Shown here: piece by piece, positions 14,586-59,597 of the stretch
Layout: the number at the start of each line of letters is the position of its first letter
Position numbering within the stretch: position 1 is the first letter of the stretch
DNA from: a virus
Lineage: Duplodnaviria; Heunggongvirae; Uroviricota; Caudoviricetes
Length of the DNA: 64,000 bases
Direction: 5' to 3' (one strand)
Virus record (IMG/VR): IMGVR_UViG_3300048837_000378
Location: 40,794-104,793 of that record
Program-made: the position numbers and the translations under genes
The notes under the pieces: model-generated
Database searches by the model: none
The model's input: the letters and a program-made list of their open reading frames with translations, nothing else
What the model was told of the DNA's origin: nothing

Positions 14586-15209
14586 ATGGGACAAATTTTA
14601 CTAGAAGATAAAACTCCTTATGGATTTGTCTATAAAATAACAAATATTGTAAACAATAAGTGTTATATTGGTCAAACTGTAAAGTCAGTATCTAGAAGGT
14701 TTATAGAACATAAAACAAAAAGTAATCCTTGTCATAAGCTAGCTAGAGCAATAAAAAAATATGGAAAGCGTAATTTTGTAGTTGAAACTTTGTGTGAATG
14801 TTTTTCTTTTGAAGAATTGAACAAAAAAGAAGTAGAGTTTATTGAAAAATATAATTCTATAAAACAAGGCTATAATATTAGGTTCGGCGGAGTAAAAGGA
14901 CGTTGGAACAAATCTTCTATAAAAAAGATGACTAAGAGTCAAATTAAACGTATGGAAGGTAAATATCCGACAGTATTGCAATACGACTTACAAGGTAATC
15001 TTGTTAGAGAATGGCGCTCTACTAGACAAATAACTAATGAGCTAGGATTAAAAATATCAGACTGTCTTAATGGACGTAGGTATTCAAGAGCTAATAGTGT
15101 TTGGGTTAGAAAAGGTAATGAGAGTTTGGTCCCAGAACTTATCAAAAAAGCTCAACCTAAACCAAAAAGAAAACTAGGAGAACCAAATGAGAATAGGTCA
15201 AAAAATTAA
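14586..15209 (+). CDS. GIY-YIG homing endonuclease
   Basis: GFVYKITNIVNNKCYIGQT ... RFIEHK ... YN GIY-YIG core plus a basic C-terminal DNA-binding region. Inserted between fibre genes. Confidence 0.8.
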   Translation: MGQILLEDKTPYGFVYKITNIVNNKCYIGQTVKSVSRRFIEHKTKSNPCHKLARAIKKYGKRNFVVETLCECFSFEELNKKEVEFIEKYNSIKQGYNIRFGGVKGRWNKSSIKKMTKSQIKRMEGKYPTVLQYDLQGNLVREWRSTRQITNELGLKISDCLNGRRYSRANSVWVRKGNESLVPELIKKAQPKPKRKLGEPNENRSKN

Positions 15210-21239: not shown

Positions 21240-21457
21240 TGTCTATAAGGTCGTGTAAAAGGTGCTTAACTCACTTGTTATGTCACCCTAACGACAAACT
21301 TAGGCACTCAGGTTGGAAGAAATGTCCTAGTTGTAGCTGGAGCTGTGATAAGGACGGTTATAATTTAATTGACAAAAAAGAGGAGAAAGTCAGTGGAGAA
21401 GAACAGCCTATTGTCGCTCATTCTTTTAATAATCAACAAATTGATAGGAAAAAATAG
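21239..21457 (+). CDS. Small Cys-rich (zinc-ribbon-like) protein
   Basis: CKRC...CPSCSWSC cysteine pairs. ATGT overlap with the previous stop. Confidence 0.35.
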   Translation: MSIRSCKRCLTHLLCHPNDKLRHSGWKKCPSCSWSCDKDGYNLIDKKEEKVSGEEQPIVAHSFNNQQIDRKK

Positions 21458-22004
21458 CGATGAAACAGAAGCAAGAAATGAAGAAGAAACAATTGTCCAA
21501 GAAGTCCTCAAAACAGGACAAGAAATCAGACAAGAAGATGCCACCAAAGTTTATGAAGAAAAGCGACAAGAAAAAGAGTTGCTAAACTTGGTAACATTAA
21601 ATGAACTTTTAAAAGGTTCTAAATTAGAAAGTATACCAGTAGAACATCAAGCTAATATTAAGGAATTACATAAACGTATAAACCTTATAAGAGAAGCTTA
21701 TGGTAAACCTATGGTAGTTACTTCAGGTTATAGAAGTAAAGAAGACCACACAAGAATATACAAAGAACTAGCAGTTAAACGTAACGTTCAGTTTGACGAG
21801 AACAAGATACCTTGGGGTAGCCAGCACTTAAAAGGTGCGGCTGTGGATATATCCGACCCTGATGGAAAATTATACGAGTGGACAGAACAAAATACAAAAT
21901 TACTAGAACAAGTGGGCCTATGGTGCGAAGTCAAAGACGACCAACGTAGAGTTCATTATCAAACGTTTCCACCTAAAAGTGGTAAACGATTTTTCAGCCC
22001 TTAA
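21369..22004 (+). CDS. Peptidase M15 (VanY / L-Ala-D-Glu peptidase-like) putative endolysin or tail lysin
   Basis: SGYRS...H...SQHLKGAAVDISDPDG zinc-site motif. The N-terminal 110 aa are an uncertain extension, and the true start may be internal. Confidence 0.65.
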   Translation: MTKKRRKSVEKNSLLSLILLIINKLIGKNSDETEARNEEETIVQEVLKTGQEIRQEDATKVYEEKRQEKELLNLVTLNELLKGSKLESIPVEHQANIKELHKRINLIREAYGKPMVVTSGYRSKEDHTRIYKELAVKRNVQFDENKIPWGSQHLKGAAVDISDPDGKLYEWTEQNTKLLEQVGLWCEVKDDQRRVHYQTFPPKSGKRFFSP

Positions 22005-25437: not shown

Positions 25438-25711
25438 ATAAGATTTCTTTGTTCTTGGCTCTCTTATTACTCCAAAGAACTACTGACTTAATATTACCAT
25501 AGTTCTTAACAATGTCAATACATAAGTGGACAACTGGAATAAGCCATAACATAAAACCTGCTATAGCCATAAGAAATAGCATAGTTAAGTCTTCAACTTT
25601 AATAATGATTTCTTCTTTTTTATAAAAATTAAGGTAAAGGTAATAGACCACTAAGGCAAATACCCCAGCACAGTACCAATATAATACGACGTGACTTTCA
25701 GGCAAATTCAT
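25388..25711 (-). CDS. Small membrane protein (two TM segments)
   Basis: LYWYCAGVFALVVYYLYL and LFLMAIAGFMLWLIPVV hydrophobic helices. Confidence 0.4.
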   Translation of the reverse strand: MNLPESHVVLYWYCAGVFALVVYYLYLNFYKKEEIIIKVEDLTMLFLMAIAGFMLWLIPVVHLCIDIVKNYGNIKSVVLWSNKRAKNKEILFGDNDDDDKTKTYPKF

Positions 25712-26159
25712 TCAGTTTAGCAAAGCTCCCGTACACTTCTAGTGCAGCTTTATTGTAAGCTTCAGCCGCCTCTCGCTCTGTTTTAAAGTAACCTATTCTT
25801 GTGCTTTTGTAATTATTATAGATAAAAGCTTCCCAAGGTTTAGTTTTTAGTTCTTTTCTAAACGTCACACCCTTATACTTAGAGTGCCTGTTTCCTTTAT
25901 GTTTCTTTTGATTATATTGATTTTCTAGTTTACTGCATATTCTAAGATTAGATTTTCTATTATCTAAAGTATCGCCGTTAATATGGTCAACTACCATTCC
26001 TTTAGGACAATTCATAATCAATCTATGCAAATACAAATTAGAATATGAGAAATACGTTTGTCCGACAGGATTTTTTTTACTCTTCCATTTATATTGTTGT
26101 ACTATTTTTAAACTTTCTAAGTCTATTAGAATTTGAAATTCATCAATGATTACGGTCAT
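25698..26159 (-). CDS. HNH homing endonuclease with AP2 DNA-binding domain
   Basis: VVDHINGDTLDNRKSNLRICS HNH core, then YKGVTF...KPWEAFI...IGYFKTEREAAEAYNKAALEVYG AP2-like domain. Confidence 0.8.
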   Translation of the reverse strand: MTVIIDEFQILIDLESLKIVQQYKWKSKKNPVGQTYFSYSNLYLHRLIMNCPKGMVVDHINGDTLDNRKSNLRICSKLENQYNQKKHKGNRHSKYKGVTFRKELKTKPWEAFIYNNYKSTRIGYFKTEREAAEAYNKAALEVYGSFAKLNEFA

Positions 26160-27484: not shown

Positions 27485-27625
27485 TTAAAAGCTCCCTGCT
27501 AATTTAATTACAAAGTACATAAAAGCTATTGCCGGTCCAATTGCTGCCGTGACAGCCAAGGCAGCTAACGTTAATCCAATTAACCAAGCCATACCATAAA
27601 TTATTACTTTCAACGCTGTATCCAT
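27485..27625 (-). CDS. Micro-ORF 1, hydrophobic peptide (46 aa)
   Basis: MDTALKVIIYGMAWLIGLTLAALAVTAAIGPAIAFMYFVIKLAGSF. GGGAG SD. ATG overlaps the stop of the deformylase gene (TAATG). Confidence 0.45.
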   Translation of the reverse strand: MDTALKVIIYGMAWLIGLTLAALAVTAAIGPAIAFMYFVIKLAGSF

Positions 27626-28080
27626 TATTCAATCTCCCTGTCATTCATAGTAATGCCTAAAAGATGGTCCATTTCATGGAGAATGACTCTAGCGCCTAGA
27701 CCACTAAAAGACCTTACCACAGTACGGTTAGCCAAGTCAAGGTATTCTACTTTAATTCTTAAAGGTCTAGTAACTTTGCAGGTTTCGCCTGGAAAACTTA
27801 AACAACCTTCTATATCGGTTGCCACTTCTTTGCTTGACCCTAAAATTTTTGGATTAAACATTATGCCGGAGTCGTTAGCACTGTACGTTTGGTTGACGCA
27901 ATCAAATACTATAAGGCTAATTGATTCACCTACTTGAGGGGCGGCTAATCCTATTCCACCTTCTAAACGCATAGTAGCTAGCATTTTTACGGCTAGCTGT
28001 TTAAGCTCATCTGTAATTTCTTCTACAGGACTAGCTACTTGACGTAGTATCGGATGATTGTCCTTTAATATCTTTAACAC
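27625..28080 (-). CDS. def: Peptide deformylase
   Basis: GIGLAAPQVG, EGCLSFPG and HEMDHL, the three PDF motifs. 151 aa. Confidence 0.9.
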   Translation of the reverse strand: MLKILKDNHPILRQVASPVEEITDELKQLAVKMLATMRLEGGIGLAAPQVGESISLIVFDCVNQTYSANDSGIMFNPKILGSSKEVATDIEGCLSFPGETCKVTRPLRIKVEYLDLANRTVVRSFSGLGARVILHEMDHLLGITMNDREIE

Positions 28081-30457: not shown

Positions 30458-31148
30458 TTAATAGCTCCTTAACTTTTAATTCAAAGTCTTGAATTGTTCC
30501 TTTATTATCTAATATCACATCAAACTTAGCTTTGTCGAGGTCTCTTTCGCTAGGGTCTGTGGAAGCACTAGTCTCAAATCGTTCTACTCTAACAGTAACT
30601 AGGTTCTTGCCAAACGCGGCTTTAAGTTGGTCAATTTCAGATTGATACCTCAAATCAGAAATAACAAAGCCTCCGTTAGTAATACCTTCGTTAAAATTCT
30701 TAGCGGCTTTAGTTCTAATTTGACTAATAGCTCGTTCTGTCCAAAAGGTACTTGTAACCGCCCTATTGACGCTACCCTTAAGAATACACAGAGCCCTGGG
30801 GGTCCAATAGAGTTGCGCCACATTACGTCCCATAACGCCCAGAAACGCTCCAGAATCATCAACGTAAGGTTCCATGGCCATGTGACCATCTGAGCTTCTA
30901 AACTCTCTATACATGAAATTACAAAGCATTAAACTGAAGTCATCTTTTGGAGTGACTGGAAGATGTAAGATTGGTGCTTCTTTAAAATTAGGGTCATCAC
31001 AATGTTCTCTAGGAATGTTGTATTCTTGAGCTACCATATCTTTAAGTACATCAGCAAAAGCAACTCTTTCGTAGCCATTAGAGATGAGCAGATTAGCTGC
31101 GGTATCCTTGCCGCTACGTTTCCAACCTGATATAGCTATAATTTTCAT
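30447..31148 (-). CDS. Deoxynucleoside monophosphate kinase (T4 gp1-like)
   Basis: N-terminal IIAISGWKRSGKDT P-loop is typical of phage dNMP kinases. Confidence 0.6.
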   Translation of the reverse strand: MKIIAISGWKRSGKDTAANLLISNGYERVAFADVLKDMVAQEYNIPREHCDDPNFKEAPILHLPVTPKDDFSLMLCNFMYREFRSSDGHMAMEPYVDDSGAFLGVMGRNVAQLYWTPRALCILKGSVNRAVTSTFWTERAISQIRTKAAKNFNEGITNGGFVISDLRYQSEIDQLKAAFGKNLVTVRVERFETSASTDPSERDLDKAKFDVILDNKGTIQDFELKVKELLNGN

Positions 31149-31528
31149 TATTTACCTCTATTTTGTAATTCGTCAGTTTTGTCGTATAAGGATTTAATAG
31201 ATTCACTATGCCCTACTAAAGTTCTTGCTAACCAGTAACTTTTGCAACTTTTGTCCAGCGTGTATAAATCATTGAAACTTTTGACATTTCTACGTTTTAG
31301 TTCGTTTTTCATATCATCTAAATCTGCTATATAATATATAACATCATAATCATCTACGATAGAAACTCTGGCATAGACCGCATTAATATTGTGCGAGTAG
31401 CATTCATCTTCTTTTGGTGTATTGAGATGCTTGAATACTAAAAACCCCGACCACCACAAACAGCCTGATATTAGTACTGCTAAAAAATATCTTGGCCAAT
31501 TAATTTGTGAAGATTTAGCTTTTTTCAC
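31148..31528 (-). CDS. Membrane protein
   Basis: N-terminal TM (YFLAVLISGCLWWSGFLVF). Confidence 0.4.
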   Translation of the reverse strand: MKKAKSSQINWPRYFLAVLISGCLWWSGFLVFKHLNTPKEDECYSHNINAVYARVSIVDDYDVIYYIADLDDMKNELKRRNVKSFNDLYTLDKSCKSYWLARTLVGHSESIKSLYDKTDELQNRGK

Positions 31529-31821
31529 TGCATTCCTTCTAAGTAGTTTTTAATAGTTTCATATTCCTGCTTAGGTAATACGCTACCTACAGGCATGTTT
31601 CGCTTAATAATAACACGCTCTTTAATAATGTCAAGTCTTTCTTTGAAAACTGTCTCATTAAGCCAGTTGGTGCTGTGTCCATGAGGACGTATGCTATCGT
31701 TGTGACAAGACATACATCTCATCTGTAATATAGGCTTTACGTCTTGAAACGTAGGATTACTTGGTATAGGTTTAGGCGTACATCCTGCCAGAAGCATTAG
31801 TACAAATAAAAAAGGCACCAT
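31525..31821 (-). CDS. Lipoprotein with c-type cytochrome motif (CxxCH plus distal Met)
   Basis: Lipobox LLAGC, CMSCHN haem-binding motif, and RNMPVG...YETIKNYLEG resembling the class I cytochrome c Met ligand and C-terminal helix. Confidence 0.5.
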   Translation of the reverse strand: MVPFLFVLMLLAGCTPKPIPSNPTFQDVKPILQMRCMSCHNDSIRPHGHSTNWLNETVFKERLDIIKERVIIKRNMPVGSVLPKQEYETIKNYLEGMQ

Positions 31822-31860
31822 GTTCTACATAGTGCCTCAATTAGCTTTATTTGTCAATAA

Positions 31861-33765
31861 TTATTTTATTGGACAGACTCCGCCTTCACACTCAAAAGAA
31901 TCTAATATGGACTGCTCGTCTATAGTTTCTATTCCTGTAATGGGTTTGGTTTTAGAGAGTAAATCTTCATAAACCTCTTTAGTAATCTCTTCTAGGGGAG
32001 CTTGAATAAACCCGTGGTCGCTGTGCAACAAAAAGGATACAGATTTGACATTTGTATTGTAATTGTCTAATAACCATTGTTTTATAAGAGGTAGTTCTTC
32101 TTTTTTGTAATATATTGTACAAGATACAGCATTATCGGACCAGTTCGTTTGCAAACTTTTAATTACTTCTAATTGGTCAACGGCTGTCATATCTTTTGCC
32201 ACTTTTGTGTGGTCTGGAAATTTACAAGGAAAAGAAACTATGACTGTACTGGCATCCAGTGAGCCGTCAAATTTTTTTTGGTATTCAACTGGATATCCGT
32301 GAGCTTTACACACTTCTACTAGAGGAATATTTGAAGCCATTCTTATACGTCTGATATGATGAGTAGCGTAGCCTGGATGACAGCCTGGCGTAACTCCGGC
32401 TAACAAGGACAGAGTGCCACTAGGTTTTACAGTGGTCAATTTAATGCTAGTATTAAAATTATGTTCCGCGCTATATTTTTTATCATACTCTCTAAGATAG
32501 ACATAGGTAGAATCTAACCAAGAACGTTGCTCGTCAGTAGCTTGAAGATAACCAGTAACTCCTATTCCCATCCTCATATTCTTATGAACAATTGCCTCAG
32601 TTTCAGGCAGGTGACAGTTTAGAGCTAAAGAGTGTTTATTTATTCGGTATAAATAAGTGGCAACTTCTTTAAATTCGTCCAAAGAATCAATATTCGGTAA
32701 GTATATCTCAGCTAAACAGCATGTCTCTTTGTCAGCTAAACTCTGTTCTGCGCAAGGATTAAATCCTCCAACTTCCATATCTGGGTATTGAGTTTCGCCC
32801 ACTCTTCCTATTTTTCTAGCTAGTCCAAGATTAATTAAACCATAAGGTTCGCCATTGCCCAAATAGCCTTGCCAAAACTGTTCTGGTAATTGAGTAATAT
32901 CATTACATACAACTGAATTGTTAGACATGGCTCTCCAATTTGGAATATTTCCAATATCCCAACGTTTGGCATTTAAGTATTGTAAGTCATCCATATCTCC
33001 TATAGCAATTTGTGCTGAACGTCGAACATTTCCTGCTACTACAATCATACCTATAATATTCATAATGTCTAAGCAATCAATAGGTCTTAATTTTTTGTTT
33101 GCTCTATCATTTAAAATTTTACTGATTTCTGTCATTCCCCAACACAAGTCTTCTGGTCCTGAAGCGAGACCACCAAAGCTTTTAATCGGAGCGCCTTTAC
33201 CACGAATACAAACAGTAGAATACGTAAAACTTTTGCCAGTAATAAAATGAGCTTCTAATACTTTACGTAGTAATTCTACCCAACCTTCTCGGCTGTCAGG
33301 AACGATAAACTCGGCATCATTGGTTTCTTGTCGAATGATTTTAACTTTTTTTGGTTTTGGAAGCTCGTACACATATTCACGTTGAATATTAAAGCCAACA
33401 CCGCTGCCGAGCATGAGAGCGTCCATTGTCCAAGTGAAAGGTCGGATAGGCTCGTTTACTAAAGTAAAGGCGCAATTTTGTAAAGACAACAAGCCTAACT
33501 TATCTACAGTCTTTGTTCCTAATTGCCACAAAAAACGGCCAGCAACAATACCTTTTAATCCTAGCATAATTTCTTTAAGACGAGCTTCTTCAGAAGAAGT
33601 AAACCCAACGTTGAGTTGATTTTTGCAAGCTTTGACTACTCTATCCACCGTATCAGAAAATTCTTCTGTTTCAGAATTTAAGCTATCGTCTTTGAATCTA
33701 CGAGCATAAGTACGTTTAAAAGTAATATAACCAACAGGACCCCAAGGAGTCTCTATTTTTTGCAT
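31861..33765 (-). CDS. nrdJ: Ribonucleotide reductase, class II (B12-dependent)-like
   Basis: GFNPCAEQSL...CCLAEI active-site motifs (NPC.E and C.L.EI). 634 aa. Confidence 0.65.
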   Translation of the reverse strand: MQKIETPWGPVGYITFKRTYARRFKDDSLNSETEEFSDTVDRVVKACKNQLNVGFTSSEEARLKEIMLGLKGIVAGRFLWQLGTKTVDKLGLLSLQNCAFTLVNEPIRPFTWTMDALMLGSGVGFNIQREYVYELPKPKKVKIIRQETNDAEFIVPDSREGWVELLRKVLEAHFITGKSFTYSTVCIRGKGAPIKSFGGLASGPEDLCWGMTEISKILNDRANKKLRPIDCLDIMNIIGMIVVAGNVRRSAQIAIGDMDDLQYLNAKRWDIGNIPNWRAMSNNSVVCNDITQLPEQFWQGYLGNGEPYGLINLGLARKIGRVGETQYPDMEVGGFNPCAEQSLADKETCCLAEIYLPNIDSLDEFKEVATYLYRINKHSLALNCHLPETEAIVHKNMRMGIGVTGYLQATDEQRSWLDSTYVYLREYDKKYSAEHNFNTSIKLTTVKPSGTLSLLAGVTPGCHPGYATHHIRRIRMASNIPLVEVCKAHGYPVEYQKKFDGSLDASTVIVSFPCKFPDHTKVAKDMTAVDQLEVIKSLQTNWSDNAVSCTIYYKKEELPLIKQWLLDNYNTNVKSVSFLLHSDHGFIQAPLEEITKEVYEDLLSKTKPITGIETIDEQSILDSFECEGGVCPIK

Positions 33766-33779
33766 TAAAACCTCATTGT

Positions 33780-34097
33780 TTAATTTTTGTATTTATCTTC
33801 TAATTGTCTATATTGCTGTTCTAAATCTTGAGAAAGGTATTCTACATAACTTAGTAGAGAATTGCGCTCAGTTGCCATACCATGTTGATACCCAGCTTCG
33901 TAAGAAGCTTGTGGATTACTTTTAGGAAGAGGTTTAAAACACTTGCTTAACTCTTGTATTGAACTTCTCATCAAAAAGTTTGCCTCTTTAATCCAATTAA
34001 GTTTACGAGTAGAAGATAGATAGTCCCAGTGACCATCTATCCCTTGTTGTTTCACGTATTCTTCAAATATTCTAGCTGCGTAAACTTCTAATTTCAT
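33780..34097 (-). CDS. Hypothetical protein (envelope cassette, soluble member)
   Basis: 105 aa. ATGA overlap with the upstream gene. Confidence 0.4.
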   Translation of the reverse strand: MKLEVYAARIFEEYVKQQGIDGHWDYLSSTRKLNWIKEANFLMRSSIQELSKCFKPLPKSNPQASYEAGYQHGMATERNSLLSYVEYLSQDLEQQYRQLEDKYKN

Positions 34098-34435
34098 TTT
34101 TTATTCCAGTAGTCTTCTACTTGAGAATCTGTAAGATTCCCTTCTTTTAAAATACTCTGGCGTTTTTCTTCTAAAATGTCAAGGGCTTTTTGAAGACTCT
34201 GTAAATCCTTTTGATTCAAGTCTCTTTGAGCCATATCTTGTTTAATACTGGCTTCCAAAGCATCAGCTTCTTTCTGCGTATTGACTAAGGCAATTTTTGC
34301 TTTAGCTGCGTCCAGTTCTTTATTTTTAAGGTTCAAAACATATAATAGTATAGCAATGCTAGCGCCGACTACTAATACAATATAACCCCAAATACTAGAA
34401 AGTCCTTGTTTAATCTTCTCCATCGTCGTCCCCAC
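34094..34435 (-). CDS. N-terminal TM plus coiled-coil protein (i-spanin-like topology)
   Basis: TM IWGYIVLVVGASIAILLYVL, then a long coiled coil. Confidence 0.45.
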   Translation of the reverse strand: MGTTMEKIKQGLSSIWGYIVLVVGASIAILLYVLNLKNKELDAAKAKIALVNTQKEADALEASIKQDMAQRDLNQKDLQSLQKALDILEEKRQSILKEGNLTDSQVEDYWNKK

Positions 34436-34985
34436 TTAATCCAGACATAATACCTGAATCTTTAACTGTTTGCAACAACTTTCCATCTAGACCGATTACT
34501 CGGTTCTTTACGCCTTTTTCATTGATACGGATTTCTTCATAAAAAACTCTACCTGCTTTAATTATATTTTTTACAATCTTTTGACGCTTTGTAGGTTTAC
34601 TATTTCCAGATTTAACTTCAAGAAATGTTATGGCTCCTTGGTCAAAGTCAAAAATACAATAATCTATAGGGTTTCCCATAAAGTGCATATTTTTAGGTTC
34701 ATGTGTACAATTCTCAAGAAAGGGTACGAGATGTTCGCTGATTTGTCCGAGTCGAGTTTCACTACTCTTCTTCTGAGACAAAAGAGTTCTATTCTTTTCT
34801 CGTTCTTGTCCCAAATCTTCTTGGACTTGTAACAGTTGAGTTTGTTGAGTTTTTAATTCTTGTTTTAGGGTCTCGTTTTGTACGGAAGTGCTCAGTATAT
34901 TTTTACTAGCTTTCTTTGTTCTATATAACTCTATTGCTAGAACTATACAAAGACATACTAACGGACCAATAAAATATTCCATCAT
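34410..34985 (-). CDS. Membrane-anchored PD-(D/E)xK nuclease-like (NERD/Hjc-like) protein
   Basis: N-terminal TM, coiled coil, then DYCIFDFDQGAITFLEVKSGNS (D...E-V-K) at the C-terminus. Confidence 0.45.
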   Translation of the reverse strand: MMEYFIGPLVCLCIVLAIELYRTKKASKNILSTSVQNETLKQELKTQQTQLLQVQEDLGQEREKNRTLLSQKKSSETRLGQISEHLVPFLENCTHEPKNMHFMGNPIDYCIFDFDQGAITFLEVKSGNSKPTKRQKIVKNIIKAGRVFYEEIRINEKGVKNRVIGLDGKLLQTVKDSGIMSGLSGDDDGED

Positions 34986-35398
34986 TTAACCTGTCCTACG
35001 GCCCAGCCAGCACCCACAGTAACTACCACTCCTAGCAACGCCATTAATAGGTCTCTATTGCCTTGACCCTCATTAACTTTAACTAGTTCTAGTGTAGACT
35101 TTTCAGCAGTAATGCGCCATAGTTCTGATTTACTGCGTTCTTTTTCTATGATGTTGTCTGATAGAGTTCTATCATATAATAGAATGTCTATTTTTTTGTT
35201 TTTAATTTGTAACTCTTGTTTAAGAAACGAATAGTCCTCATTCATTAGCCTAATTTCTTTCTCTTTCTCTTTTGAGAATAAGAAACCGGAACAAGGAGCC
35301 GAAGCTCCCTGTTCTAATAAAGTTACTGGTTTAGGACATTCAGCAAAAGTCTGAAAAGGAATCATAATTGCTAACACTAAACACAATAGCTTTTTCAT
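34982..35398 (-). CDS. Secreted, C-terminally membrane-anchored coiled-coil protein
   Basis: Signal peptide MKKLLCLVLAIMIPFQTFA, two Cys, and a C-terminal TM LLMALLGVVVTVGAGWAVG. Confidence 0.45.
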   Translation of the reverse strand: MKKLLCLVLAIMIPFQTFAECPKPVTLLEQGASAPCSGFLFSKEKEKEIRLMNEDYSFLKQELQIKNKKIDILLYDRTLSDNIIEKERSKSELWRITAEKSTLELVKVNEGQGNRDLLMALLGVVVTVGAGWAVGQVK

Positions 35399-35399
35399 A

Positions 35400-36362
35400 T
35401 TAGTACTTCTTTACGTTACGGTCAGCAGAACCTTCACGAGCATCAAGTTTCTTAGTCACCAATTTTTTGATATTTTCCGCAGCTTCAAGACCTACAGAAT
35501 CTAAGACTGTACGATTAAATCGAGAATAGCCGGATTGATTGATGTCAGTACTTACTTTTGTTGAATTCACTAAGGAGTCTGTGTCAGAAGCAAACAAGGG
35601 TTCTCCATCAATATATACATTCCAACTGAGAGCTTCTGTAATTAGTGGACAGTTTGACATAACGTCAACAATCTCTACTACGTGGCCCATGTAGATGAAA
35701 CGGTCGTATAGTGCGTTATGTGTACCTTTTAAGCTTTGGTCACAAGAAGGCTTAACTACTCGGTCTGCAAAACCTTGAGCAATACAGTCAGCACCATCGC
35801 ACCAGTGTTCGTTTTCAATCAATGCTGCGTAGCTTTTTGCTGTATGTTTTCCGTTTGTACGTTTGACGACTTGGGCGTCTAATCGTTGAACTCTGCGGAG
35901 ATAGTGATTATATCTAGAATCGAGTTGTCCTGGAAACTCTCCATAAAATCCACCTCGCGCTTTGTGGCTCATTAAAGTGCCGTTTTCAGTAATTAGACGT
36001 TCACCTCGTAAACCTTCTACAGTTTGGAATCCCATAGATGCGGCGAACAGCGTTACAGTTTTTACTGGTCGATTGAGATTGTTAAGGTTTTCAATTAACT
36101 CGATACCAGCTTCAGTAGACCCTCCGCCAGAATCAAGAACCAGATATAAAGGTTCATTAGACTGTAATTTGGCATCTAAATCTTTTGCTTTTTGAGTTAC
36201 TTGTGCGACCTTCTCTCCTGAGAAGTAATCATCCATAACAATTGTATTATCCTTAGTTAGGACAATTCCATTTTTTACTCCTACTGTCGTTTTCGGTGGA
36301 GTAGCTGCAAAGCTACTTAAACCTAGAAGTAGTGTGCTCATCAATACTAAAATCTTCTTCAT
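35400..36362 (-). CDS. Secreted ClpP/S49-fold serine protease (NfeD/SppA-like)
   Basis: Signal peptide MKKILVLMSTLLLGLSSFA, then LVLDSGGGSTEAG...TLFAASMGFQ ClpP/crotonase-fold motifs. Confidence 0.5.
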   Translation of the reverse strand: MKKILVLMSTLLLGLSSFAATPPKTTVGVKNGIVLTKDNTIVMDDYFSGEKVAQVTQKAKDLDAKLQSNEPLYLVLDSGGGSTEAGIELIENLNNLNRPVKTVTLFAASMGFQTVEGLRGERLITENGTLMSHKARGGFYGEFPGQLDSRYNHYLRRVQRLDAQVVKRTNGKHTAKSYAALIENEHWCDGADCIAQGFADRVVKPSCDQSLKGTHNALYDRFIYMGHVVEIVDVMSNCPLITEALSWNVYIDGEPLFASDTDSLVNSTKVSTDINQSGYSRFNRTVLDSVGLEAAENIKKLVTKKLDAREGSADRNVKKY

Positions 36363-36647
36363 CTATTCTCCTTGTTTTTCTACGGTAGTTTTACCTGCCG
36401 TCACTTTTCTACCAAAGTACAAAGCTGCAAATACAGTCAGTAGTTCTTTGGAATTATCAAAATTTAATCCTAAATTGAGGCTCACATTGCTCTTATCAAA
36501 TAAGGCTAGTAAAGCTACAATCCCAGATACAACTAAAAAAGTAAATGTGATTGAAGGTTCTTTAGATTTTATATCCCTCAAAGTGATGGGCGTAATATCT
36601 AAACCTTTTTCCTTCAAAGAATTTAACAGTTCTTTAAGTTTATCCAT
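36363..36647 (-). CDS. Small membrane protein
   Basis: Central TM ITFTFLVVSGIVALLALF. Confidence 0.4.
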   Translation of the reverse strand: MDKLKELLNSLKEKGLDITPITLRDIKSKEPSITFTFLVVSGIVALLALFDKSNVSLNLGLNFDNSKELLTVFAALYFGRKVTAGKTTVEKQGE

Positions 36648-36654
36648 ACATCTC

Positions 36655-37317
36655 CTATACGATATTAATGGGGCCTTGAATTTCTAAGGAAGAAAAATCT
36701 CTATTTTTAATCCCTATCTTTTGAAGAAATCCCATTGATATTGCTAATGCGTCATACAAATCTGAGGGCGTAGCTCTAGTATTGCCCGTTATATTAGACA
36801 CGATTTGAGCAGGAATTGTGTTACATACTTTAGTGACCTCCGTTTTAGTAGGGAGTTTATAATCCCTCTTCTTTTTGCCATTCTTATCTAAAGTTACTGT
36901 AGGTTTAATCCCAAGTAACGACCGCCAAGTTTGAGGCAAAATGGTTTTATATTTTACTCCAATCTCAGCAAGAGACACCTGCAAAACACCATGTAATTCG
37001 GGTCCGACATGGCTTCCCATCATTTTGTTTTGATTAATCATATAAGCTTCAGCTACACAATAGTCAACTTGGCCCACAATATTAAAGTAATTGGTGATAG
37101 CAGCAAACAAGTAATGATACTTTTCTTGATTACTCCAATCATCATTAAACCAAATAACCCCAGCATTAGTGAATGTCGCTTTCTTTTGAGCAAAGTTTAC
37201 GGTAACTAAACTGTACCCAGTACAAGACGCACTAAGGTCTAAAAATAGAATATTAAAAGACTCTACTTTCTGACCTATATCTTCTTGTAATTCTTCTAAA
37301 TCTTTATCTACGACCAT
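36655..37317 (-). CDS. RuvC-like Holliday junction resolvase
   Basis: N-terminal ILFLDLSASCTGYSLV resembles the RuvC GIDPG..TGY motif. 220 aa. Confidence 0.5.
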   Translation of the reverse strand: MVVDKDLEELQEDIGQKVESFNILFLDLSASCTGYSLVTVNFAQKKATFTNAGVIWFNDDWSNQEKYHYLFAAITNYFNIVGQVDYCVAEAYMINQNKMMGSHVGPELHGVLQVSLAEIGVKYKTILPQTWRSLLGIKPTVTLDKNGKKKRDYKLPTKTEVTKVCNTIPAQIVSNITGNTRATPSDLYDALAISMGFLQKIGIKNRDFSSLEIQGPINIV

Positions 37318-40503: not shown

Positions 40504-40798
40504 AAGGGTACAGACTAAGTTTGTCTAAGTCTATCTCCGCATCTAATTCCATTATTTTAGAATGGCTATTTTTTTTAATATGGTATTTTTTGCACATTTT
40601 TAATGCTTTCATATTCGGAGCTGAGTCAAACACTATTTTTACTCTAGGCATTCTTTTTTCATCTGATGCTCGAGTAAATGAAGGGTGTTCGTCTGTTCCA
40701 AAATAGTCTATAGATACTTTGACGCCAGTATCTCTTATGTATAGAGGTTCATTTTTGAACATCGCTTCAATCAGTTTATCTCTAACTCGCCAATCCAT
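40448..40798 (-). CDS. LYG-tail small protein family member
   Basis: Ends ...DGAKVLYGKEAKKIK. Confidence 0.45.
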   Translation of the reverse strand: MDWRVRDKLIEAMFKNEPLYIRDTGVKVSIDYFGTDEHPSFTRASDEKRMPRVKIVFDSAPNMKALKMCKKYHIKKNSHSKIMELDAEIDLDKLSLYPFESDGAKVLYGKEAKKIK

Positions 40799-40799
40799 T

Positions 40800-41372
40800 T
40801 TAACCTTTTACAAAAATCTCAAATAAAGACCTTTTTAGTCGGTTATTTGATTTGATACCGAGTTCTCCTAGTTTTGTTTCAAGCTCTTTAAGCTGGACAA
40901 ACGGGTCGGCTAAATCTTTTACTTTCTCTTTATTTACTTCAATCTCTATAAACCTAGAGCGTTCTTTCATATCTTTGTCGTAAACGATATAATACACCAC
41001 ATTAACGTTTTCAAACCAGTAGATAAAACAAGTCTTGTAGATTTTTGTGTTTTCTTGGTAATTTAAAAGGGACGTAAAAGCGTCTACACTAGTTTTACTT
41101 AAACGCTGTGAATCTAAAGGTAAATCAACTTCTACACGTTCCCAATTGTTAGAATTCTTCGTTTTTCTTTTTATTGTTAATTCTGGACTGTCGGCTTGTC
41201 GAAACCGGATAAACTCGTCTTTTATGGTCAAATCTGTAGGAGTGTAATAATAATCCCAACTAGACACGTCCACACGCTTTACTGGAGACATCTTAGAAAT
41301 ACAATCTAAAAAACTGGATAAGCTAATATCATTAGCATCATACTTGTATTCTAACTCTTTAAAATCGTCCAT
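40800..41372 (-). CDS. Hypothetical protein
   Basis: 190 aa. Confidence 0.4.
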   Translation of the reverse strand: MDDFKELEYKYDANDISLSSFLDCISKMSPVKRVDVSSWDYYYTPTDLTIKDEFIRFRQADSPELTIKRKTKNSNNWERVEVDLPLDSQRLSKTSVDAFTSLLNYQENTKIYKTCFIYWFENVNVVYYIVYDKDMKERSRFIEIEVNKEKVKDLADPFVQLKELETKLGELGIKSNNRLKRSLFEIFVKG

Positions 41373-41892
41373 TTCTCCGGTCCTCTATTTCCTTTGCATA
41401 AGCTTGGAAACTCTCTTCAGTAGGAAACCCCACTTCAGGGTTCATCACGTCTCGCACATTATTTACATGATTGAAGCCTAAACAGTGTAAATATTCGTGT
41501 ATCAAGATTTGTCTGTAAGTCTCGTAATCTTCTCCACTTCTTATAGATATATCACAAGTATTCCACAAAGACAAGGCTAATCCTGCAACATTATCTTGTC
41601 CTACGATTTTAGAGACTTCTTTAATCGTTATAGCTTTTTGAGGTAAGACAATAGAATGAGTAGAAGTTGGTCTAAAGGATACGGCCCTACCTGTAGCTGA
41701 CATATTGTTAAATTCTCTTAAAAATTCAATAGTTACGTCGTTTCCATAGTTGGGCGTGTCAATTTTGTAAATGTACCCATCCGTAAAGAATGTAGGTTTT
41801 TTTGAAATTACATAATTAGCAGTTCCAAGAGTAATAGAAGAAAAAATTATAAAAATTTGTATAATTAATCTAATCGCTAAAGGATTCCGCAT
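41359..41892 (-). CDS. Secreted zinc metallopeptidase (HExxH)
   Basis: N-terminal hydrophobic signal/anchor, HEYLHCLGFNHV motif. Confidence 0.5.
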   Translation of the reverse strand: MRNPLAIRLIIQIFIIFSSITLGTANYVISKKPTFFTDGYIYKIDTPNYGNDVTIEFLREFNNMSATGRAVSFRPTSTHSIVLPQKAITIKEVSKIVGQDNVAGLALSLWNTCDISIRSGEDYETYRQILIHEYLHCLGFNHVNNVRDVMNPEVGFPTEESFQAYAKEIEDRRNGRF

Positions 41893-44213
41893 TATTTAGC
41901 TTCTCCCCAATTGTCTGCAATAATAGGTTCAGCCACTAAAGGAATACTTATTTTTGTTGTATTTTCCATACACTCTTTCATCAACTTCGCGGCCAAAGCG
42001 GAATGTTCTTCTTTAACTATTGCAGTAATTTCATCGTGTACCTGAAGTCCAATCCAGCCATCAATGTTGTGTTGTTTGAATAATCTAGACAAAGCAATCA
42101 TAGCTCTATTAACTATGTGGGCCGCCAAACCTTGAATAGGAAAGTTTTTAGAGTTGTTAAGGACATTTTTAAATTTACGTCTAATATCTTCTACGCCTTG
42201 TTTTTTTGCCCATTTATATTCAAGAATGCTATCTCCGTAAAGACTGTATATACTTCTAGCCTCTCTTAAGTGTCTAATACGTCCAAACTCTGTACTAACT
42301 TGACCAGTAGTTTTTGCAGTGTAGTTGCACCTGTTCATATATTTACGAAGATAGGGAAATCCATTAAGGTAGTTGTCAATAACATCATTGGCTTCTTTAA
42401 ACGATATGCCCAATTCATCCGAGATTCGTGATGCTTCCGCTCCATAAGGTATAGCCAGAGCAATAACTTTTGCTACTTGACGTTTTTCAGGCATAATATT
42501 TTTTAGATAATTAGCATCAGATTTCTTTGCACTAACTCCAGTCAAATTAAACGTTTCAATGGCTACACGAGAGTATAAGTCCTCTCCGTTACGGAACACG
42601 TCTTTCAGCTTTTCGTCGCCGCTCACATGAGCAAAACACACTGGCTCCAGAGAAGCGTAGTCCGCATTGACAACCTTATACCCTTTAGGTGCGACGAATC
42701 CTTTACGGATTGCATTAACGTACTTTAGGACTAAGGGGGATAATCCTGAATCTTCATCTTTAATTCTTGGTTGATTTTGAAGATTAGGATTTCTACTACT
42801 AAATCGTCCAGAAGTTGTTCCAAACTGCAACATTGAAGTGTAAATTACGCCGTCAATCTGACGTTCTAAAATTCCTTCTACATAAGTAGACAGCAGTTTG
42901 TTTAATTTTTTAAAGTCTAGAAGTTTTTCTATTACTAATCTAGATTTTAATGATTCTAAAAATTCATCATCAATTTGAGGCTTTCCAGTTTCCGTTTTTT
43001 CAGGAGTAACATAACCCCAGGTTTTACAAATTAGTTCAATTAAATGGTCATTACTTTTTAAATTAAAGATGTGACGTTTATCTTCGTATTTTTCAAAAAA
43101 GAGTTTCTCTTGTGCTGCTCTAATAGGATTATTAGCGGAATTACCAGCAGCTTTTGTAAAAAGTATTTTAGCTGCTGCCGAAGGGATTGCCTTTGTTATG
43201 TCTTTCTCAGCTCCAGATACCCAATCGTAAAAGGTTGCAAAGACTGGAGTGGCTTCTTTTTGTTTATCTACCGCTTTTTTAGCTAACGTAGTTTTGCCCT
43301 CTTTATTTACTGGAAGAGGGATACCTAAAACTTCTGCTAAAGCTTTAGGAAAATTACCAGCATTTTTAATTGGAAATTCATCGTTAAGTAATTCTGTTTC
43401 AAATCCATTAATTTCAGTCTTAATAGACTTCATAATATCGTCTTCTACTTGCTTAATTTCTCCTGAAATTTGAGATTTCAGGTTCTCATAATAAGCGGTA
43501 TCAATAGGAAAACCATTACGTTTCATATTGATTGTGACTTCTTTATAAAGAGGCATAATTTCTTCATTGTAGAATAAGTTGTCCAGTCCTTCTTTAGTTA
43601 ACTTTAAACTAAAAAGTTCATAAAGCATAAAACTCAACAACACGTCCCAACAACAATAGTCACCTAAAGTTTGTGTGGACGCTAAATACATATCTTTTTG
43701 GTCTTTAGTCCAGGAGCCGCCTTTAGCAAGAACTTCGTTTTTAAGAGTATCTTGTGCTCTGTCAGCCCAAACTCCAAGTTCTTCTACGGCAGTTTCTTTC
43801 AATCCAAAAGGACCCTCTTCATTTAAAGTATGTCTCATTAATATTGTATCAGCTAAGATTCTATCGTCTAATTTTTTACCAAAATTACACTCATACACCA
43901 AGACATCATAAATTAAGTTGTGTCCAATGATTTGTTTTGAATCAAACAGGTTGTTTAGCCAAGTTAAGATTGTTCTGTGCTCCGACTCTGACCAAAACAT
44001 CTGCCTATCTGGAGTACGAATGGGAATGTAAAAGGCGGTCGTAGTTGTAAAAGCTATACCAATTCCCATTACTTGGGCCAGTTTTTCATTAACGCTATCT
44101 GTTTCTAAGTCGAATGAAATAATCTCAGAGTCTACTTTATCTGCGTAGGACTTTAATCTTTCAAAGAAACTCATATCAGTTATGAGATAGTTATTTACTG
44201 TAGGTTGATTCAT
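41892..44213 (-). CDS. DNA polymerase, family A, with 3'-5' exonuclease domain
   Basis: Exo I SFDLETDS, motif A VVNADYASLEPV, motif B RQVAKVIALAIPYG, motif C QVHDEI. Confidence 0.9.
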   Translation of the reverse strand: MNQPTVNNYLITDMSFFERLKSYADKVDSEIISFDLETDSVNEKLAQVMGIGIAFTTTTAFYIPIRTPDRQMFWSESEHRTILTWLNNLFDSKQIIGHNLIYDVLVYECNFGKKLDDRILADTILMRHTLNEEGPFGLKETAVEELGVWADRAQDTLKNEVLAKGGSWTKDQKDMYLASTQTLGDYCCWDVLLSFMLYELFSLKLTKEGLDNLFYNEEIMPLYKEVTINMKRNGFPIDTAYYENLKSQISGEIKQVEDDIMKSIKTEINGFETELLNDEFPIKNAGNFPKALAEVLGIPLPVNKEGKTTLAKKAVDKQKEATPVFATFYDWVSGAEKDITKAIPSAAAKILFTKAAGNSANNPIRAAQEKLFFEKYEDKRHIFNLKSNDHLIELICKTWGYVTPEKTETGKPQIDDEFLESLKSRLVIEKLLDFKKLNKLLSTYVEGILERQIDGVIYTSMLQFGTTSGRFSSRNPNLQNQPRIKDEDSGLSPLVLKYVNAIRKGFVAPKGYKVVNADYASLEPVCFAHVSGDEKLKDVFRNGEDLYSRVAIETFNLTGVSAKKSDANYLKNIMPEKRQVAKVIALAIPYGAEASRISDELGISFKEANDVIDNYLNGFPYLRKYMNRCNYTAKTTGQVSTEFGRIRHLREARSIYSLYGDSILEYKWAKKQGVEDIRRKFKNVLNNSKNFPIQGLAAHIVNRAMIALSRLFKQHNIDGWIGLQVHDEITAIVKEEHSALAAKLMKECMENTTKISIPLVAEPIIADNWGEAK

Positions 44214-44385: not shown

Positions 44386-44988
44386 TTACTCCAACACTTC
44401 GTCCGCTAATCCTAATTCTACAGCCTCTTCTCCAGTGACAATAAAATCTGATTTTAGCATCTCTTGTATATCTTTTTTTGTTAAGCTAGGATTCACTGCT
44501 TGCATTTTTTCTAAAAACAAATCTTCCATCCAAGAATCAATTTTTTTATTATCATCAATCCATTTGTATACGTCTTGAGCATTTCCATCACTACCGAAGC
44601 TGCCGTAGTGCATCATAAAACGGGAATTAGCAGACATTACTCGCTTGTCTGCTGCTTGTAAAATGATTCCTCCCATAGACATAGCTTTACCATATACTAT
44701 GATAGTTATGTGATTTCTGCAAGCTTTGATTGCATCATAAATACCAAGACCGTCGTACTCATCTCCACCAGGATTATTCATAATGATAGTTATGGGTTTG
44801 TCTCCATTAGGGGCAGAACTGTCTAAAATATGAAGTCCTTTAATGATTCTTTGAGCCATCTCAGCGTCAGTCCCTGACTCACCGTCTTCATTATCTACAG
44901 CATGAGACCGCATTACAATAGTTCTAGTCGGTACGTAAATATCGTAATCAAATAGTCTATCAATCTCATCTTTGTAGATTTTTGCCAT
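44386..44988 (-). CDS. clpP: ClpP-family serine protease
   Basis: NNPGGDEYDGLGIYDAIK, GKAMSMGG (Ser nucleophile) and RFMMHYGS motifs match ClpP. 200 aa. Confidence 0.8.
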   Translation of the reverse strand: MAKIYKDEIDRLFDYDIYVPTRTIVMRSHAVDNEDGESGTDAEMAQRIIKGLHILDSSAPNGDKPITIIMNNPGGDEYDGLGIYDAIKACRNHITIIVYGKAMSMGGIILQAADKRVMSANSRFMMHYGSFGSDGNAQDVYKWIDDNKKIDSWMEDLFLEKMQAVNPSLTKKDIQEMLKSDFIVTGEEAVELGLADEVLE

Positions 44989-58176: not shown

Positions 58177-59376
58177 CTAGTCTTTAGGGCCTGTATTGGA
58201 CATCTTATCGCTAATGCGCATAAAAGATTCTAGTCCTACAGCATCAAAGGGGTTCAAAGCTTGTCCACCTTTTCCATCACCGCCACCAATAACCATCATA
58301 CCTGGAAATTTAACTTGAGACATTTTTTCTGCTACTCCAATAGAAGTTTTCATTTGATATTCAGCTCGTTCTTGTGGAGTGAGACCTGCTTGCACTTTGA
58401 GTCGATTAGTTTCAGCTTCAGCTTTACCTCTCACTACGGCGGCTTTGGCCTCTTCTTCAGCTTGCAGTCGTTGTTGTACTGCTACTTCTTTTTCACGTTC
58501 GGCATTAATAACCGCAGTCTTTTTTTCAACTAAGGCTAGAGCTTCTGCTTGTGCGACTTTTGCCTTTCCTTCTTCTCCTGCCGTAATAGCGTCTTGCTTG
58601 GCTCGTTCGGCTTTAGCCCTAGATACTACTTTTTCTTGTTCAGCTTCTTTCTTTTTGACAATAATAGCTTGTGTTTTTTCATCAAAATCAAAGTCTTTAA
58701 TCACAAAATTAATTACTTCTACATTGTACCTAATTAGAGGAGACCCTTTACTAATGATACGTTTGCCTTCTTTATCCGTTTTGATGCGAACTTGAGTTTC
58801 CGTATAAGTGTTTCCATCAGAGTCGGTCTCTTTGATTTGTTCCGATAAAGTTTCATAGATACCTAGTTTAATCTGTTCTTCTGCTAAAGTAGTAAACTCT
58901 GCCAAGCGACCAGAATAAGATTCTTCTGCTTTCATAGTAGCGGCAGTTTTATTTAAAGCCTCCTGCACTACTTGCCTAATAAGGTCGTTCTTTACGGCTT
59001 CATAGGCTTTAAAGTCCTTGTGCAGTAGAAGTTGGTCAGACTCTTTAGTTGATAGACGAAACTTGATAGCGCCTGAAATAAAGGCTTGACCGCCATCATT
59101 AAACCGGACTGTAATAGGCTCCGCACCTACCTCTGGACCGTCACCGTCATGTTTAGAAAAATAGTACATATCAGATACTTGGTAAGTACTAATATTTCCA
59201 AAAAACTGATTATAAGTACCTGCCTGATTACGCACAGACATTTCCCCACTAACAGCCGCTTGTTTGACTTGGTAATAACCTTCGTCGTTAGTTTCTACTA
59301 TTTGTCCTACTGTAGACAGTAGAGTAATAAGAGCAACAGCTCCTAGTACCATAATACCAATTTTTCTTGGATTCAT
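58177..59376 (-). CDS. SPFH/band-7 (stomatin/HflC-like) membrane protein with long Ala/Glu/Lys-rich coiled coil
   Basis: N-terminal TM IGIMVLGAVALITLL, an SPFH-like core, a C-terminal AEQEKVVSRAKAERAKQDAI... coiled coil, and a GGGDGKG tail. Confidence 0.7.
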   Translation of the reverse strand: MNPRKIGIMVLGAVALITLLSTVGQIVETNDEGYYQVKQAAVSGEMSVRNQAGTYNQFFGNISTYQVSDMYYFSKHDGDGPEVGAEPITVRFNDGGQAFISGAIKFRLSTKESDQLLLHKDFKAYEAVKNDLIRQVVQEALNKTAATMKAEESYSGRLAEFTTLAEEQIKLGIYETLSEQIKETDSDGNTYTETQVRIKTDKEGKRIISKGSPLIRYNVEVINFVIKDFDFDEKTQAIIVKKKEAEQEKVVSRAKAERAKQDAITAGEEGKAKVAQAEALALVEKKTAVINAEREKEVAVQQRLQAEEEAKAAVVRGKAEAETNRLKVQAGLTPQERAEYQMKTSIGVAEKMSQVKFPGMMVIGGGDGKGGQALNPFDAVGLESFMRISDKMSNTGPKD

Positions 59377-59597
59377 TTGTTTTCCTTTGTAAATTTGTTA
59401 ATTTCATTTTGTTTTTTATCAACGTCTTTAAATTCTTCTTTAGTTTGTACCACTTCTTGATATTGTTCGTCAACTAATTTTATTTCGGCAATTCTATTGC
59501 GGACGTTGGCTTTTTGCACAGCTAGGTAGATATTATATAATATAAGCCCTCCCACCCCTACAGTGAACAAAAAAATTGCTAAAGCTATAATACTCAT
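59373..59597 (-). CDS. Small single-TM protein (holin-like topology)
   Basis: MSIIALAIFLFTVGVGGLILYNIYLAV TM, then a charged C-terminus. Confidence 0.4.
   Translation of the reverse strand: MSIIALAIFLFTVGVGGLILYNIYLAVQKANVRNRIAEIKLVDEQYQEVVQTKEEFKDVDKKQNEINKFTKENK

Follow-up and report, generated by a model that had tools for sequence, protein, structure and literature searches.

A predicted phage envelope module combining a secreted or anchored protease, small membrane proteins and, frequently, a membrane-tethered nuclease

Organisation and setting of the locus

The large, uncultured tailed phage (Caudoviricetes) represented by IMG/VR record IMGVR_UViG_3300048837_000378 carries six adjacent minus-strand genes within the 64,000-nucleotide stretch analysed here (positions 40,794 to 104,793 of that record; hereafter the window). 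In gene order, their products are predicted to be a small inner-membrane protein (g94, 94 aa, 36363-36647), a secreted ClpP-fold serine protease (g320, 320 aa, 35400-36362), a type I membrane protein (g138, 138 aa, 34982-35398), a PD-(D/E)xK nuclease with a membrane tether (g191, 191 aa, 34410-34985; PF10107/COG4741), a protein with an N-terminal transmembrane segment (TM) and a coiled coil (g113, 113 aa from a GTG, 34094-34435) and a soluble protein (g105, 105 aa, 33780-34097). All six open reading frames (ORFs) of the initial annotation were confirmed, and for g113 an ATG at 34423, with GGGGA upstream, is a likelier start than the GTG. Comparison with related loci shows what we read from sequence as a conserved, portable phage envelope module, rather than six unrelated genes. 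For this comparison, 121 loci (cited by L numbers) were gathered from IMG/VR, metagenomes and GTDB, and their ORFs were labelled by iterated hidden Markov model searches.

The set lies where it had first been placed, between a RuvC-like Holliday junction resolvase gene upstream (36655-37317, minus; phrog_159, 8.4e-12) and a class II (B12-dependent) ribonucleotide reductase (RNR) gene downstream (31861-33765, minus; phrog_367, 7e-129; Pfam Ribonuc_red_lgC, RNR-II_ins_dom and RNR_Alpha). From g94 to g105 the junctions measure 0, 1, -4 (ATGA), -14/-26 and -4 (ATGA) nt. This bears out the tight spacing behind the earlier claim of translational coupling but not its value as evidence of a unit, since, of the 79 junctions that the 42-kb minus-strand block contains, 63 measure 10 nt or less and 48 are overlaps; close packing of genes prevails throughout this genome and is no mark of a cassette. 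The clustering of envelope proteins in the set is real. By Kyte-Doolittle hydropathy, five members of the set encode a TM or signal segment, as had been claimed (one strong TM in g94, an N-terminal signal-like segment in g320, a signal-like segment plus a C-terminal TM in g138, one N-terminal TM each in g191 and g113, and none in g105). Among the 80 minus-strand ORFs, 15 have a hydrophobic segment, one of them (RNR) spuriously; five of the remaining 14 fall in the six-gene set and two more lie at 31148-31821, directly past the RNR gene.

A terminator-like hairpin (31812-31838, a 12-bp stem followed by a T-run) stands 3' of the RNR gene, and none was found between the RuvC and RNR genes except one inside the g138 coding sequence. 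Since no terminator separates them and the junctions are tight everywhere, the six genes are part of a long DNA-metabolism transcription unit and have no operon of their own; co-transcription of the module with the early/middle replication genes is shown or, at the least, strongly predicted.

The ClpP-fold protease

The g320 protein begins with a signal peptide (aa 1-19, cleaved after …SSFA and before A), after which come a ClpP domain (aa ~33-205), a beta domain rich in Cys (aa ~205-260), a basic C-terminal helix and an invariant terminal Tyr. It matches Pfam CLP_protease (E 2.2e-14, 54.2 bits against a cut-off of 20.2), and its AlphaFold2 (AF2) model, built with 30 homologues (predicted local distance difference test, pLDDT, 81; predicted TM-score, pTM, 0.76), retrieves ClpP from the PDB by Foldseek (E 1.6e-12, target TM-score, TMt, ~0.78, 17-24% identity). 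Residues S109 (AASMG), H133 (MSHKA), E185, D200, C188/C193/C207/C238 and Y320 are invariant among the 30 homologues. Each of these carries a hydrophobic signal at its N terminus, in most cases with an AxA-like end. In a pairwise alignment with what we take to be the E. coli ClpP sequence, S109/H133/E185 of g320 fall on ClpP S111/H136/D185; on that same presumed sequence, the acidic position of the Ser-His-Asp catalytic triad is held by the invariant E185 and not by an Asp. The signal peptide and the paired conserved cysteines suggest that g320 is a periplasmic and probably active serine protease.

The NCBIfam ClpP and head-protease models match the ClpP domain only, far below their equivalog cut-offs, and the PHROG head-protease matches are likewise confined to it. 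The closest viral match is an uncultured-phage protein annotated merely as 'ClpP', and phage-encoded secreted ClpP-like proteases have so far been annotated only under that generic name. A prohead protease is ruled out by the signal peptide, the conserved cysteines and the location between the RuvC and RNR genes, outside the head/structural module. The initial annotation had described a signal-peptide protease of ClpP/SppA/NfeD fold; the secreted ClpP fold stands on the Pfam and Foldseek results, and the S49/SppA part does not, as Peptidase_S49 gives no match, CLP_protease is the only protease family in Pfam at E<=1, and the ClpP-motif His is fully conserved. A cytoplasmic ClpP partnered by a Clp ATPase was also rejected, because the signal peptide in 30/30 homologues and the four invariant cysteines predict an extracytoplasmic location. 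A prohead role for g320 is also disfavoured by a second ClpP-family gene (44386-44988, minus; 200 aa, AMSMGG and MMHYG motifs, without a signal peptide), which sits just upstream of the PolA gene (41892-44213), in a layout shared by L001 and L016. The phage encodes two ClpP-like proteases, one predicted to be cytoplasmic and the other secreted.

The membrane-tethered nuclease

The g191 protein is a bona fide member of PF10107/COG4741 by its match to Pfam PF10107 (Endonuc_Holl; E 1.2e-23, 84.1 bits, the cut-off being 23.8; positions 23-158 of the 159-position profile), its N-terminal TM and its E-(V/I)D-E(V/I)K motif. COG4741 has been described as a minimal PD-(D/E)xK core of four strands and two helices, bearing this motif and preceded by an N-terminal TM, and three topology predictors put its nuclease domain in the cytosol (Kosinski et al. 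2005, PMC1189080). The family is still uncharacterised, an orphan 'secreted nuclease' since 2005, and we found no solved structural relative of PF10107. In g191, an N-out TM (aa 1-23) leads into a long helix to aa ~92, a minimal nuclease core and an acidic tail (DDDGED), in agreement with the TM, coiled coil and nuclease-like C-terminal domain first assigned to the gene. The AF2 model (pLDDT 71) places a helix at 6-92 ahead of a small alpha/beta core (strands/helix/strands). The catalytic residues E84, D108 and E123-V-K125 are invariant in 29 phage homologues, with 50 invariant columns overall. The N-terminal TM is universal among PF10107 members, short ones included; those of the window's clade have an additional coiled-coil spacer of ~40 aa and often an acidic tail. 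The TM and coiled-coil stretch of g191 gives weak matches to Rz-like spanin PHROGs (E about 1e-3).

The 15 residues after the TM contain a mean of 3.9 Lys or Arg, against 0.29 before it, and the C-terminal side exceeds the N-terminal side in 65 of 66 PF10107 family members. This positive-inside bias predicts a tethered nuclease domain on the cytoplasmic face of the inner membrane. The earlier suggestion of a periplasmic DNA-degrading system conflicts both with this prediction and with that of Kosinski et al. (PMC1189080), and is not supported.

The commonest Pfam neighbours of the scanned PF10107 genes are PolyA_pol + HD (CCA-adding type, 8-9 members) and Lactamase_B_2 (metallo-beta-lactamase, MBL, fold; 9 members). 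In an unrelated lineage from IMG/VR (L051, L065, L067, L078, L079, L081, L082 and L085), a short PF10107 protein is encoded between a ~490-aa protein and one of ~250 or ~910 aa, which probably correspond to PolyA_pol + HD and Lactamase_B_2. This hints at a link of the family to tRNA/RNA processing and repair.

The small membrane proteins

The families of g138, g113 and g94 are previously unnamed. The g138 protein consists of a cleavable signal peptide, a head motif (C-x-KPVT-x-L-xx-G-xx-APC-x-G[FY]LF-x-PEKE-x-EVR) in which two Cys are all but invariant, a coiled coil, a Gly/Ala-rich C-terminal TM (aa 116-137) and a short basic tail; hydropathy and alignment uphold the signal peptide, coiled coil and C-terminal anchor described initially. 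It is predicted to expose the two-Cys head motif on a coiled-coil stalk in the periplasm. A profile search recovered 519 representative clusters at E<=1e-3, about 120-150 aa long and all of the same architecture, and none of Pfam, PHROGs, NCBIfam and PADLOC has a family that matches g138. In 26 aligned members the residue preceding the Cys, after an AxA-type site, is mostly E, D, N or another residue than G, A or S; the lipobox consensus [LVI][ASTVI][GAS]C is present in full in none of the 26, a few being near-lipobox and one lacking the Cys. By these criteria g138 is predicted not to be a lipoprotein. Unimolecular spanins (u-spanins) are defined by an N-terminal lipobox signal and a C-terminal TM domain (PMC6139136), and g138 was rejected as one of the T1 gp11 type: the C-terminal TM domain does fit, but the lipobox is absent, the Cys is periplasmic and the stalk is alpha-helical.

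The hairpin inside g138 (35289-35314, minus) is a perfect 11-bp stem with a TTCG loop (GAACAGGGAGC-TTCG-GCTCCTTGTTC, -18.8 kcal/mol) and covers the codons of the conserved EQGASAPCS motif. It is kept in L091 and L093 with a different sequence (GGGGGC-GCAA-GCCCC), and could either result incidentally from the G-A…A-P codons or be a genuine RNA element.

The g94 protein, which had been called a TM protein, contains a single strong TM (aa 30-55) and a second, more weakly hydrophobic stretch (aa ~68-78), and its termini are basic, from which we infer an N-in/C-in hairpin; its family conserves 'PS(I/V)T' before the TM and 'LYFGRK' after the second hydrophobic stretch. No Pfam, PHROG or PADLOC match was obtained. 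Its size, TM and charged tail fit a holin, but no holin family in Pfam or PHROG matches it, and the endolysin candidate lies ~14 kb off on the other strand. Homologues stand upstream of the protease in nine loci (L001, L011, L043, L091, L093, L110, L112, L116 and L118), with a fragment in L117, and in L010, L016 and L111 this place is taken by unlabelled TM proteins.

In g113, the family motif (V/I)EDYWNKK is conserved at the C terminus, family matches are weak only (DUF4446, 5.6e-4; Rz-like phrog_739, 6e-3), and the charge bias suggests a cytoplasmic coiled coil. The TM and coiled coil of the initial annotation were recovered. As the inner-membrane (i-) half of a two-component spanin, g113 was rejected because no adjacent lipobox ORF of >=20 aa for an outer-membrane (o-) spanin exists on the minus strand within 33700-36700. 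Paralogy with the N-terminal region of g191 was likewise rejected (BLASTP E 67). Homologues follow g191 or adjoin g138 in L010, L016, L043, L091-L097, L103, L105, L109, L111, L112 and L114, and shorter g113-like proteins occur in L011, L106, L115 and L121. The soluble g105 has no family match in Pfam or PHROG. Its homologues lie downstream of g113 in L010, L043, L091, L096, L097, L109, L111, L112 and L116; it is syntenic with the module in the RuvC…RNR clade only and absent from the module in other genomic contexts.

Conservation and portability of the module

IMG/VR scans with a single g191 or g320 sequence gave no match, whereas alignment-based scans found homologues. INPHARED holds distant matches only (29% identity to ClpP/head proteases, 36% to Flavobacterium phage 'endonuclease' genes), and metagenomic relatives of the phage are abundant. 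The gene neighbourhood, which the initial annotation had proposed to compare across phages, is conserved: in a clade represented by contigs of 100-118 kb, the order g181, RuvC, g94, protease, g138, g191, g113, g105, RNR recurs, with small insertions or contig-end losses, in the window, L043, L091, L097, L111, L112 and L116, as far as g105 in L010, in its downstream part in L096, and partially in L095 and L109. A RuvC-like resolvase takes the same position in L001, L010, L016, L043, L091, L095, L097, L107 and L110-L112.

A secreted or anchored serine protease lies no more than two small genes upstream of g138 in 25 of 28 evaluable loci, and this slot is filled by two folds: a g320-type ClpP-like protease in 14 distinct loci and an unrelated, N-terminally anchored trypsin-like protease in 11. 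An example of the latter, at L043:4477-5478, matches Pfam Trypsin_2 (1.8e-8) and has TNNH, HDLC and GSSGS motifs. The exceptions to protease-g138 adjacency are the L016/L017 lineage, where the ClpP-like gene is 4 kb away, and L114, where transporters occupy the slot. In L114 (3369-5004), the g138 and g113 homologues come after genes for a PQ-loop (SemiSWEET-like) protein of 89 aa and a multi-pass, transporter-like protein of 460 aa. The protease swap is a non-orthologous displacement at a fixed position.

The combination of protease, g113-like protein and g138 (with g94 in some loci) also occurs without g191 or the RuvC/RNR flanks (L011, L106, L115, L118, L119 and L121). The protease, g138 and g113-like core is found in at least three other genomic contexts, in which PHROG searches of the flanking genes gave no matches. 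The displacement of one fold by another in a single slot, together with this portability, is the strongest argument that the protease and g138 work together. The portable functional core comprises the protease, g138 and a g113-like protein, joined in some loci by g94. The nuclease g191 is a frequent addition, immediately following g138 in 22 of 30 loci (about 70%). We found no description of this assembly or of an interchangeable protease slot in the literature searched; the individual enzymes belong to known families (ClpP-fold peptidases and PF10107/COG4741). PF10107 and the phage secreted ClpP-like proteases are thereby given a concrete context, i.e. a recurring module with a protease slot filled by two unrelated folds.

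The content of the RuvC-RNR region varies between close relatives, and in L001 and L045 an unrelated envelope protein replaces g138 and g113. This protein of ~150 aa (L001 9546-10001, L045 5219-5680) follows the ClpP-like protease, has an N-terminal TM and a Lys/Glu/Thr-rich linker, and ends in …LSVSMEF or …SLSVEF, reminiscent of an outer-membrane beta-signal. In L043 and L111, Cys-rich inserts without a Pfam match, possibly homing endonucleases, lie inside the envelope module.

Likeness to known systems

The layout of g191 resembles that of SNIPE (PD-lambda-1), a membrane-bound anti-phage nuclease of E. coli that cleaves phage DNA during injection and whose membrane anchoring spares resident DNA and prevents self-damage (Saxton et al., Nature 2026, PMC13190303). 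In both proteins a brief periplasmic N terminus precedes a single TM pass, and an extended helical linker connects this to a C-terminal nuclease in the cytoplasm; for g191 this is a prediction and an analogy of layout only. SNIPE differs in being bacterial and a single gene with DUF4041 and a GIY-YIG nuclease, neither of which matches g191 in Pfam or PADLOC; g191 is phage-encoded, has a PD-(D/E)xK core, is accompanied by a periplasmic protease and three small membrane proteins, and has no sequence relationship to SNIPE. Similarly, g320 shares the fold, the Ser-His motifs and the Pfam/NCBIfam domain match of ClpP (MEROPS S14) and the phage head-maturation proteases, and is set apart from them by its cleavable signal peptide, four invariant Cys, additional C-terminal beta domain and basic helix.

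In architecture only, the protease and g138 recall the DegS/RseA and NfeD/stomatin pairs, in which a membrane-associated or periplasmic serine protease stands beside a single-pass coiled-coil membrane protein, the encoded neighbour being the substrate of the protease; the N-terminal anchor of the trypsin-like protease in L043-type loci adds to the likeness to DegS. For its part, g138 has no PDZ, anti-sigma or SPFH domain. SPFH proteins usually pair with NfeD (ClpP-class) proteases, and the window does encode one, a membrane-anchored SPFH/Band 7 protein of 399 aa (58177-59376, minus; Pfam 2e-12), with a 74-aa TM protein (59373-59597, minus) upstream at a 4-nt overlap. The NfeD/stomatin idea was dropped, given the 22 kb between the gene for this SPFH protein and g320 and the lack of such a domain in g138. 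Spanins (lambda Rz/Rz1, T1 gp11) are TM-anchored periplasmic coiled coils, and g138 shares with the u-spanins the outline of an N-terminal signal and a C-terminal TM domain; it differs in its missing lipobox, its periplasmic cysteines and its helical instead of beta-rich periplasmic domain, and the window holds no o-spanin partner for it. The module is at most 'like' SNIPE or regulated periplasmic proteolysis, and is a member of neither.

Proposed function and competing explanations

By analogy with SNIPE we propose, tentatively and as a possibility that may well prove wrong, that the module is an early-expressed entry barrier serving superinfection exclusion. The module would be made early, together with the replication genes, and its periplasmic protease would attack or sense the proteins of an incoming phage, directly or via g138; a periplasmic chamber protease could degrade unfolded ejection proteins, and the membrane-tethered nuclease would cut DNA emerging at the inner membrane. 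Held by its tether, the nuclease would not reach the replicating DNA of the resident phage, by the same spatial self/non-self logic as in SNIPE, and a phage making its nuclease after entry of its own genome would gain the same discrimination. Coupling would occur through TM-TM contacts, and the small residues of the Gly/Ala-rich g138 TM suggest that single-pass proteins could signal via their TMs; g138 would be a substrate, adaptor or sensor of the protease. A fuller version, which we consider doubtful, is a proteolysis-gated trans-envelope exclusion in which the protease (of ClpP or trypsin fold) and g138 would recognise or destroy a rival's injection apparatus and license g191 to cut the incoming genome. 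The proposal is supported by the co-orientation of the module with early/middle DNA-metabolism genes and the lack of an internal terminator. In T4, the exclusion genes imm and sp likewise lie within replication-gene clusters, and the variability of the RuvC-RNR region among close relatives fits a conflict or accessory function. If the exclusion role is true, viruses too would use the strategy of cutting DNA at its entry site recently found in bacteria, with a periplasmic proteolytic layer added to it; the trans-envelope version would make the module a viral, multi-component counterpart of SNIPE.

Several observations weigh against an exclusion role. The nuclease is missing from ~30% of the module instances and is dispensable to the core. 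In most other phage loci recovered (contigs of about 50-170 kb) the ClpP-like protease is alone; genes for a zinc-finger protein and an SbcC-like protein often follow it, and in some cases small secreted proteins precede it. PF10107 is alone in about 30 other phage loci, among tRNA nucleotidyltransferase (PolyA_pol + HD), MBL-fold, PolB-exonuclease and primase genes. Each enzyme, being found alone, has a function independent of the other. The orientations of g113 and g94 are read from a weak charge bias, PADLOC gives no credible match for the module proteins, and in the distant lineage of L040 a ClpP-like protease adjoins a lipoprotein and an M15 endolysin, which points to lysis. The exclusion role and any protein-protein interaction, cleavage of g138 included, are proposals drawn from sequence.

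We consider it unlikely that the module is associated with lysis, with the protease and coiled-coil proteins helping to dismantle the periplasm or the outer membrane, or setting lysis timing. In such a scheme g94 would be holin-like, g138 and g113 antiholin- or spanin-like, and the protease would degrade a regulator, as host DegP degrades T4 RI; the alternative protease does belong to the DegP (Trypsin_2) family. The 53-kb phage of L040 encodes, after its ClpP-like protease, an 80-aa lipoprotein and an M15 endolysin 43% identical to the candidate of the window, with small TM genes convergent to them, and the g113 homologue of L043 is overlapped at its 3' end by an ORF for a lipoprotein of 93 aa (LLGC), an arrangement resembling that of overlapped i-/o-spanin genes. 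The matches of g113 and g191 to Rz-like spanin PHROGs, weak as they are, point the same way, as does the lack of a holin or spanin adjoining the endolysin candidate (21369-22004). In the window, however, no lipoprotein ORF lies in or beside the module, which sits in a DNA-metabolism operon 12 kb from the endolysin candidate and on the opposite strand. Most g138 members have no lipobox, and their periplasmic Cys and alpha-helical stalk are unlike those of u-spanins; the cytoplasmic coiled coil suggested for g113 does not suit a spanin, and the membrane nuclease has no obvious role in lysis. The initial annotation had judged the architecture unlike a canonical holin-endolysin-spanin set, and this agrees with what was found: Rz-like matches that are only weak (E about 1e-3), an M15/VanY endolysin candidate elsewhere on the plus strand, and no holin, spanin or defence family match in any part of the set. 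If lysis were nevertheless its role, the module would represent a new route of envelope dismantling in phages whose available sequence yielded no canonical spanin.

The place of the module between a RuvC-like resolvase and RNR leads to another explanation, that of DNA or nucleotide economy, in which g191 would act at the membrane on the host chromosome or on replication intermediates, with the RuvC-like resolvase, RNR, deoxynucleoside monophosphate (dNMP) kinase and ThyX, and the envelope proteins would be independent neighbours. DNMK, Thy1 and dUTPase genes lie near the module in relatives, PF10107 in other phages keeps company with PolyA_pol + HD, Lactamase_B_2, PolB exonuclease and archaeo-eukaryotic (AEP) primase, and the nuclease domain is predicted to be cytoplasmic. 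We nonetheless hold this improbable, as a family-wide membrane tether is ill-suited to bulk degradation of the nucleoid, and both the position of g191 after g138 in 22/30 loci and the linkage of protease and g138 would be left unexplained. It is just as improbable, in our view, that there is no functional unit and that unrelated accessory membrane genes have gathered in a permissive variable region, their adjacency being inherited synteny. Tight junctions are background across this genome, the ClpP-like protease and PF10107 are each alone in many phages, and RuvC-RNR content is variable among relatives, all of which favours such an account; what it does not accommodate is that the adjacency of protease and g138 outlasts both the swap to an unrelated fold (14 ClpP-like against 11 trypsin-like) and the move to other genomic contexts.

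Other genes of the window

No tRNA genes were found, and the GTDB scan returned only three contigs from metagenome-assembled genomes, which look like mis-binned phage and give no clue to the host. Past the RNR gene, a 98-aa lipoprotein (31525-31821, minus; lipobox LLAGC) has a haem-binding CxxCH motif (CMSCH) and weakly matches Cytochrome_CBB3 (E 0.0045); this cytochrome-c-like protein, unusual for a phage, has homologues in L001 and L032 and is followed by a 126-aa TM protein (31148-31528, minus). A 177-aa protein with a signal peptide (41359-41892, minus), the metzincin motif HEYLHCLGFNH (HExxHxxGxxH) and a weak Peptidase_M10 match (5.5e-4) is a candidate for a third protease and probably secreted, and a lipoprotein of L040 (3469-3906) has a similar HELGHC motif. 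The endolysin candidate, on the plus strand at the end of the tail-fibre module, matches Peptidase_M15_3 (6e-8), VanY (1e-5) and phrog_894, and has a TTG start and a lysine-rich N-terminal extension that includes a weakly hydrophobic stretch. Two genes resemble homing endonucleases, one of GIY-YIG type in the tail-fibre module (14586-15209, plus; phrog_314, 3e-30) and one with HNH_3 and AP2 domains (25698-26159, minus; Pfam 1e-11 and 4e-6). A peptide deformylase (27625-28080, minus; Pfam 7e-46) is also present in L001 and L002 and adjoins PF10107 genes in three other phage loci.

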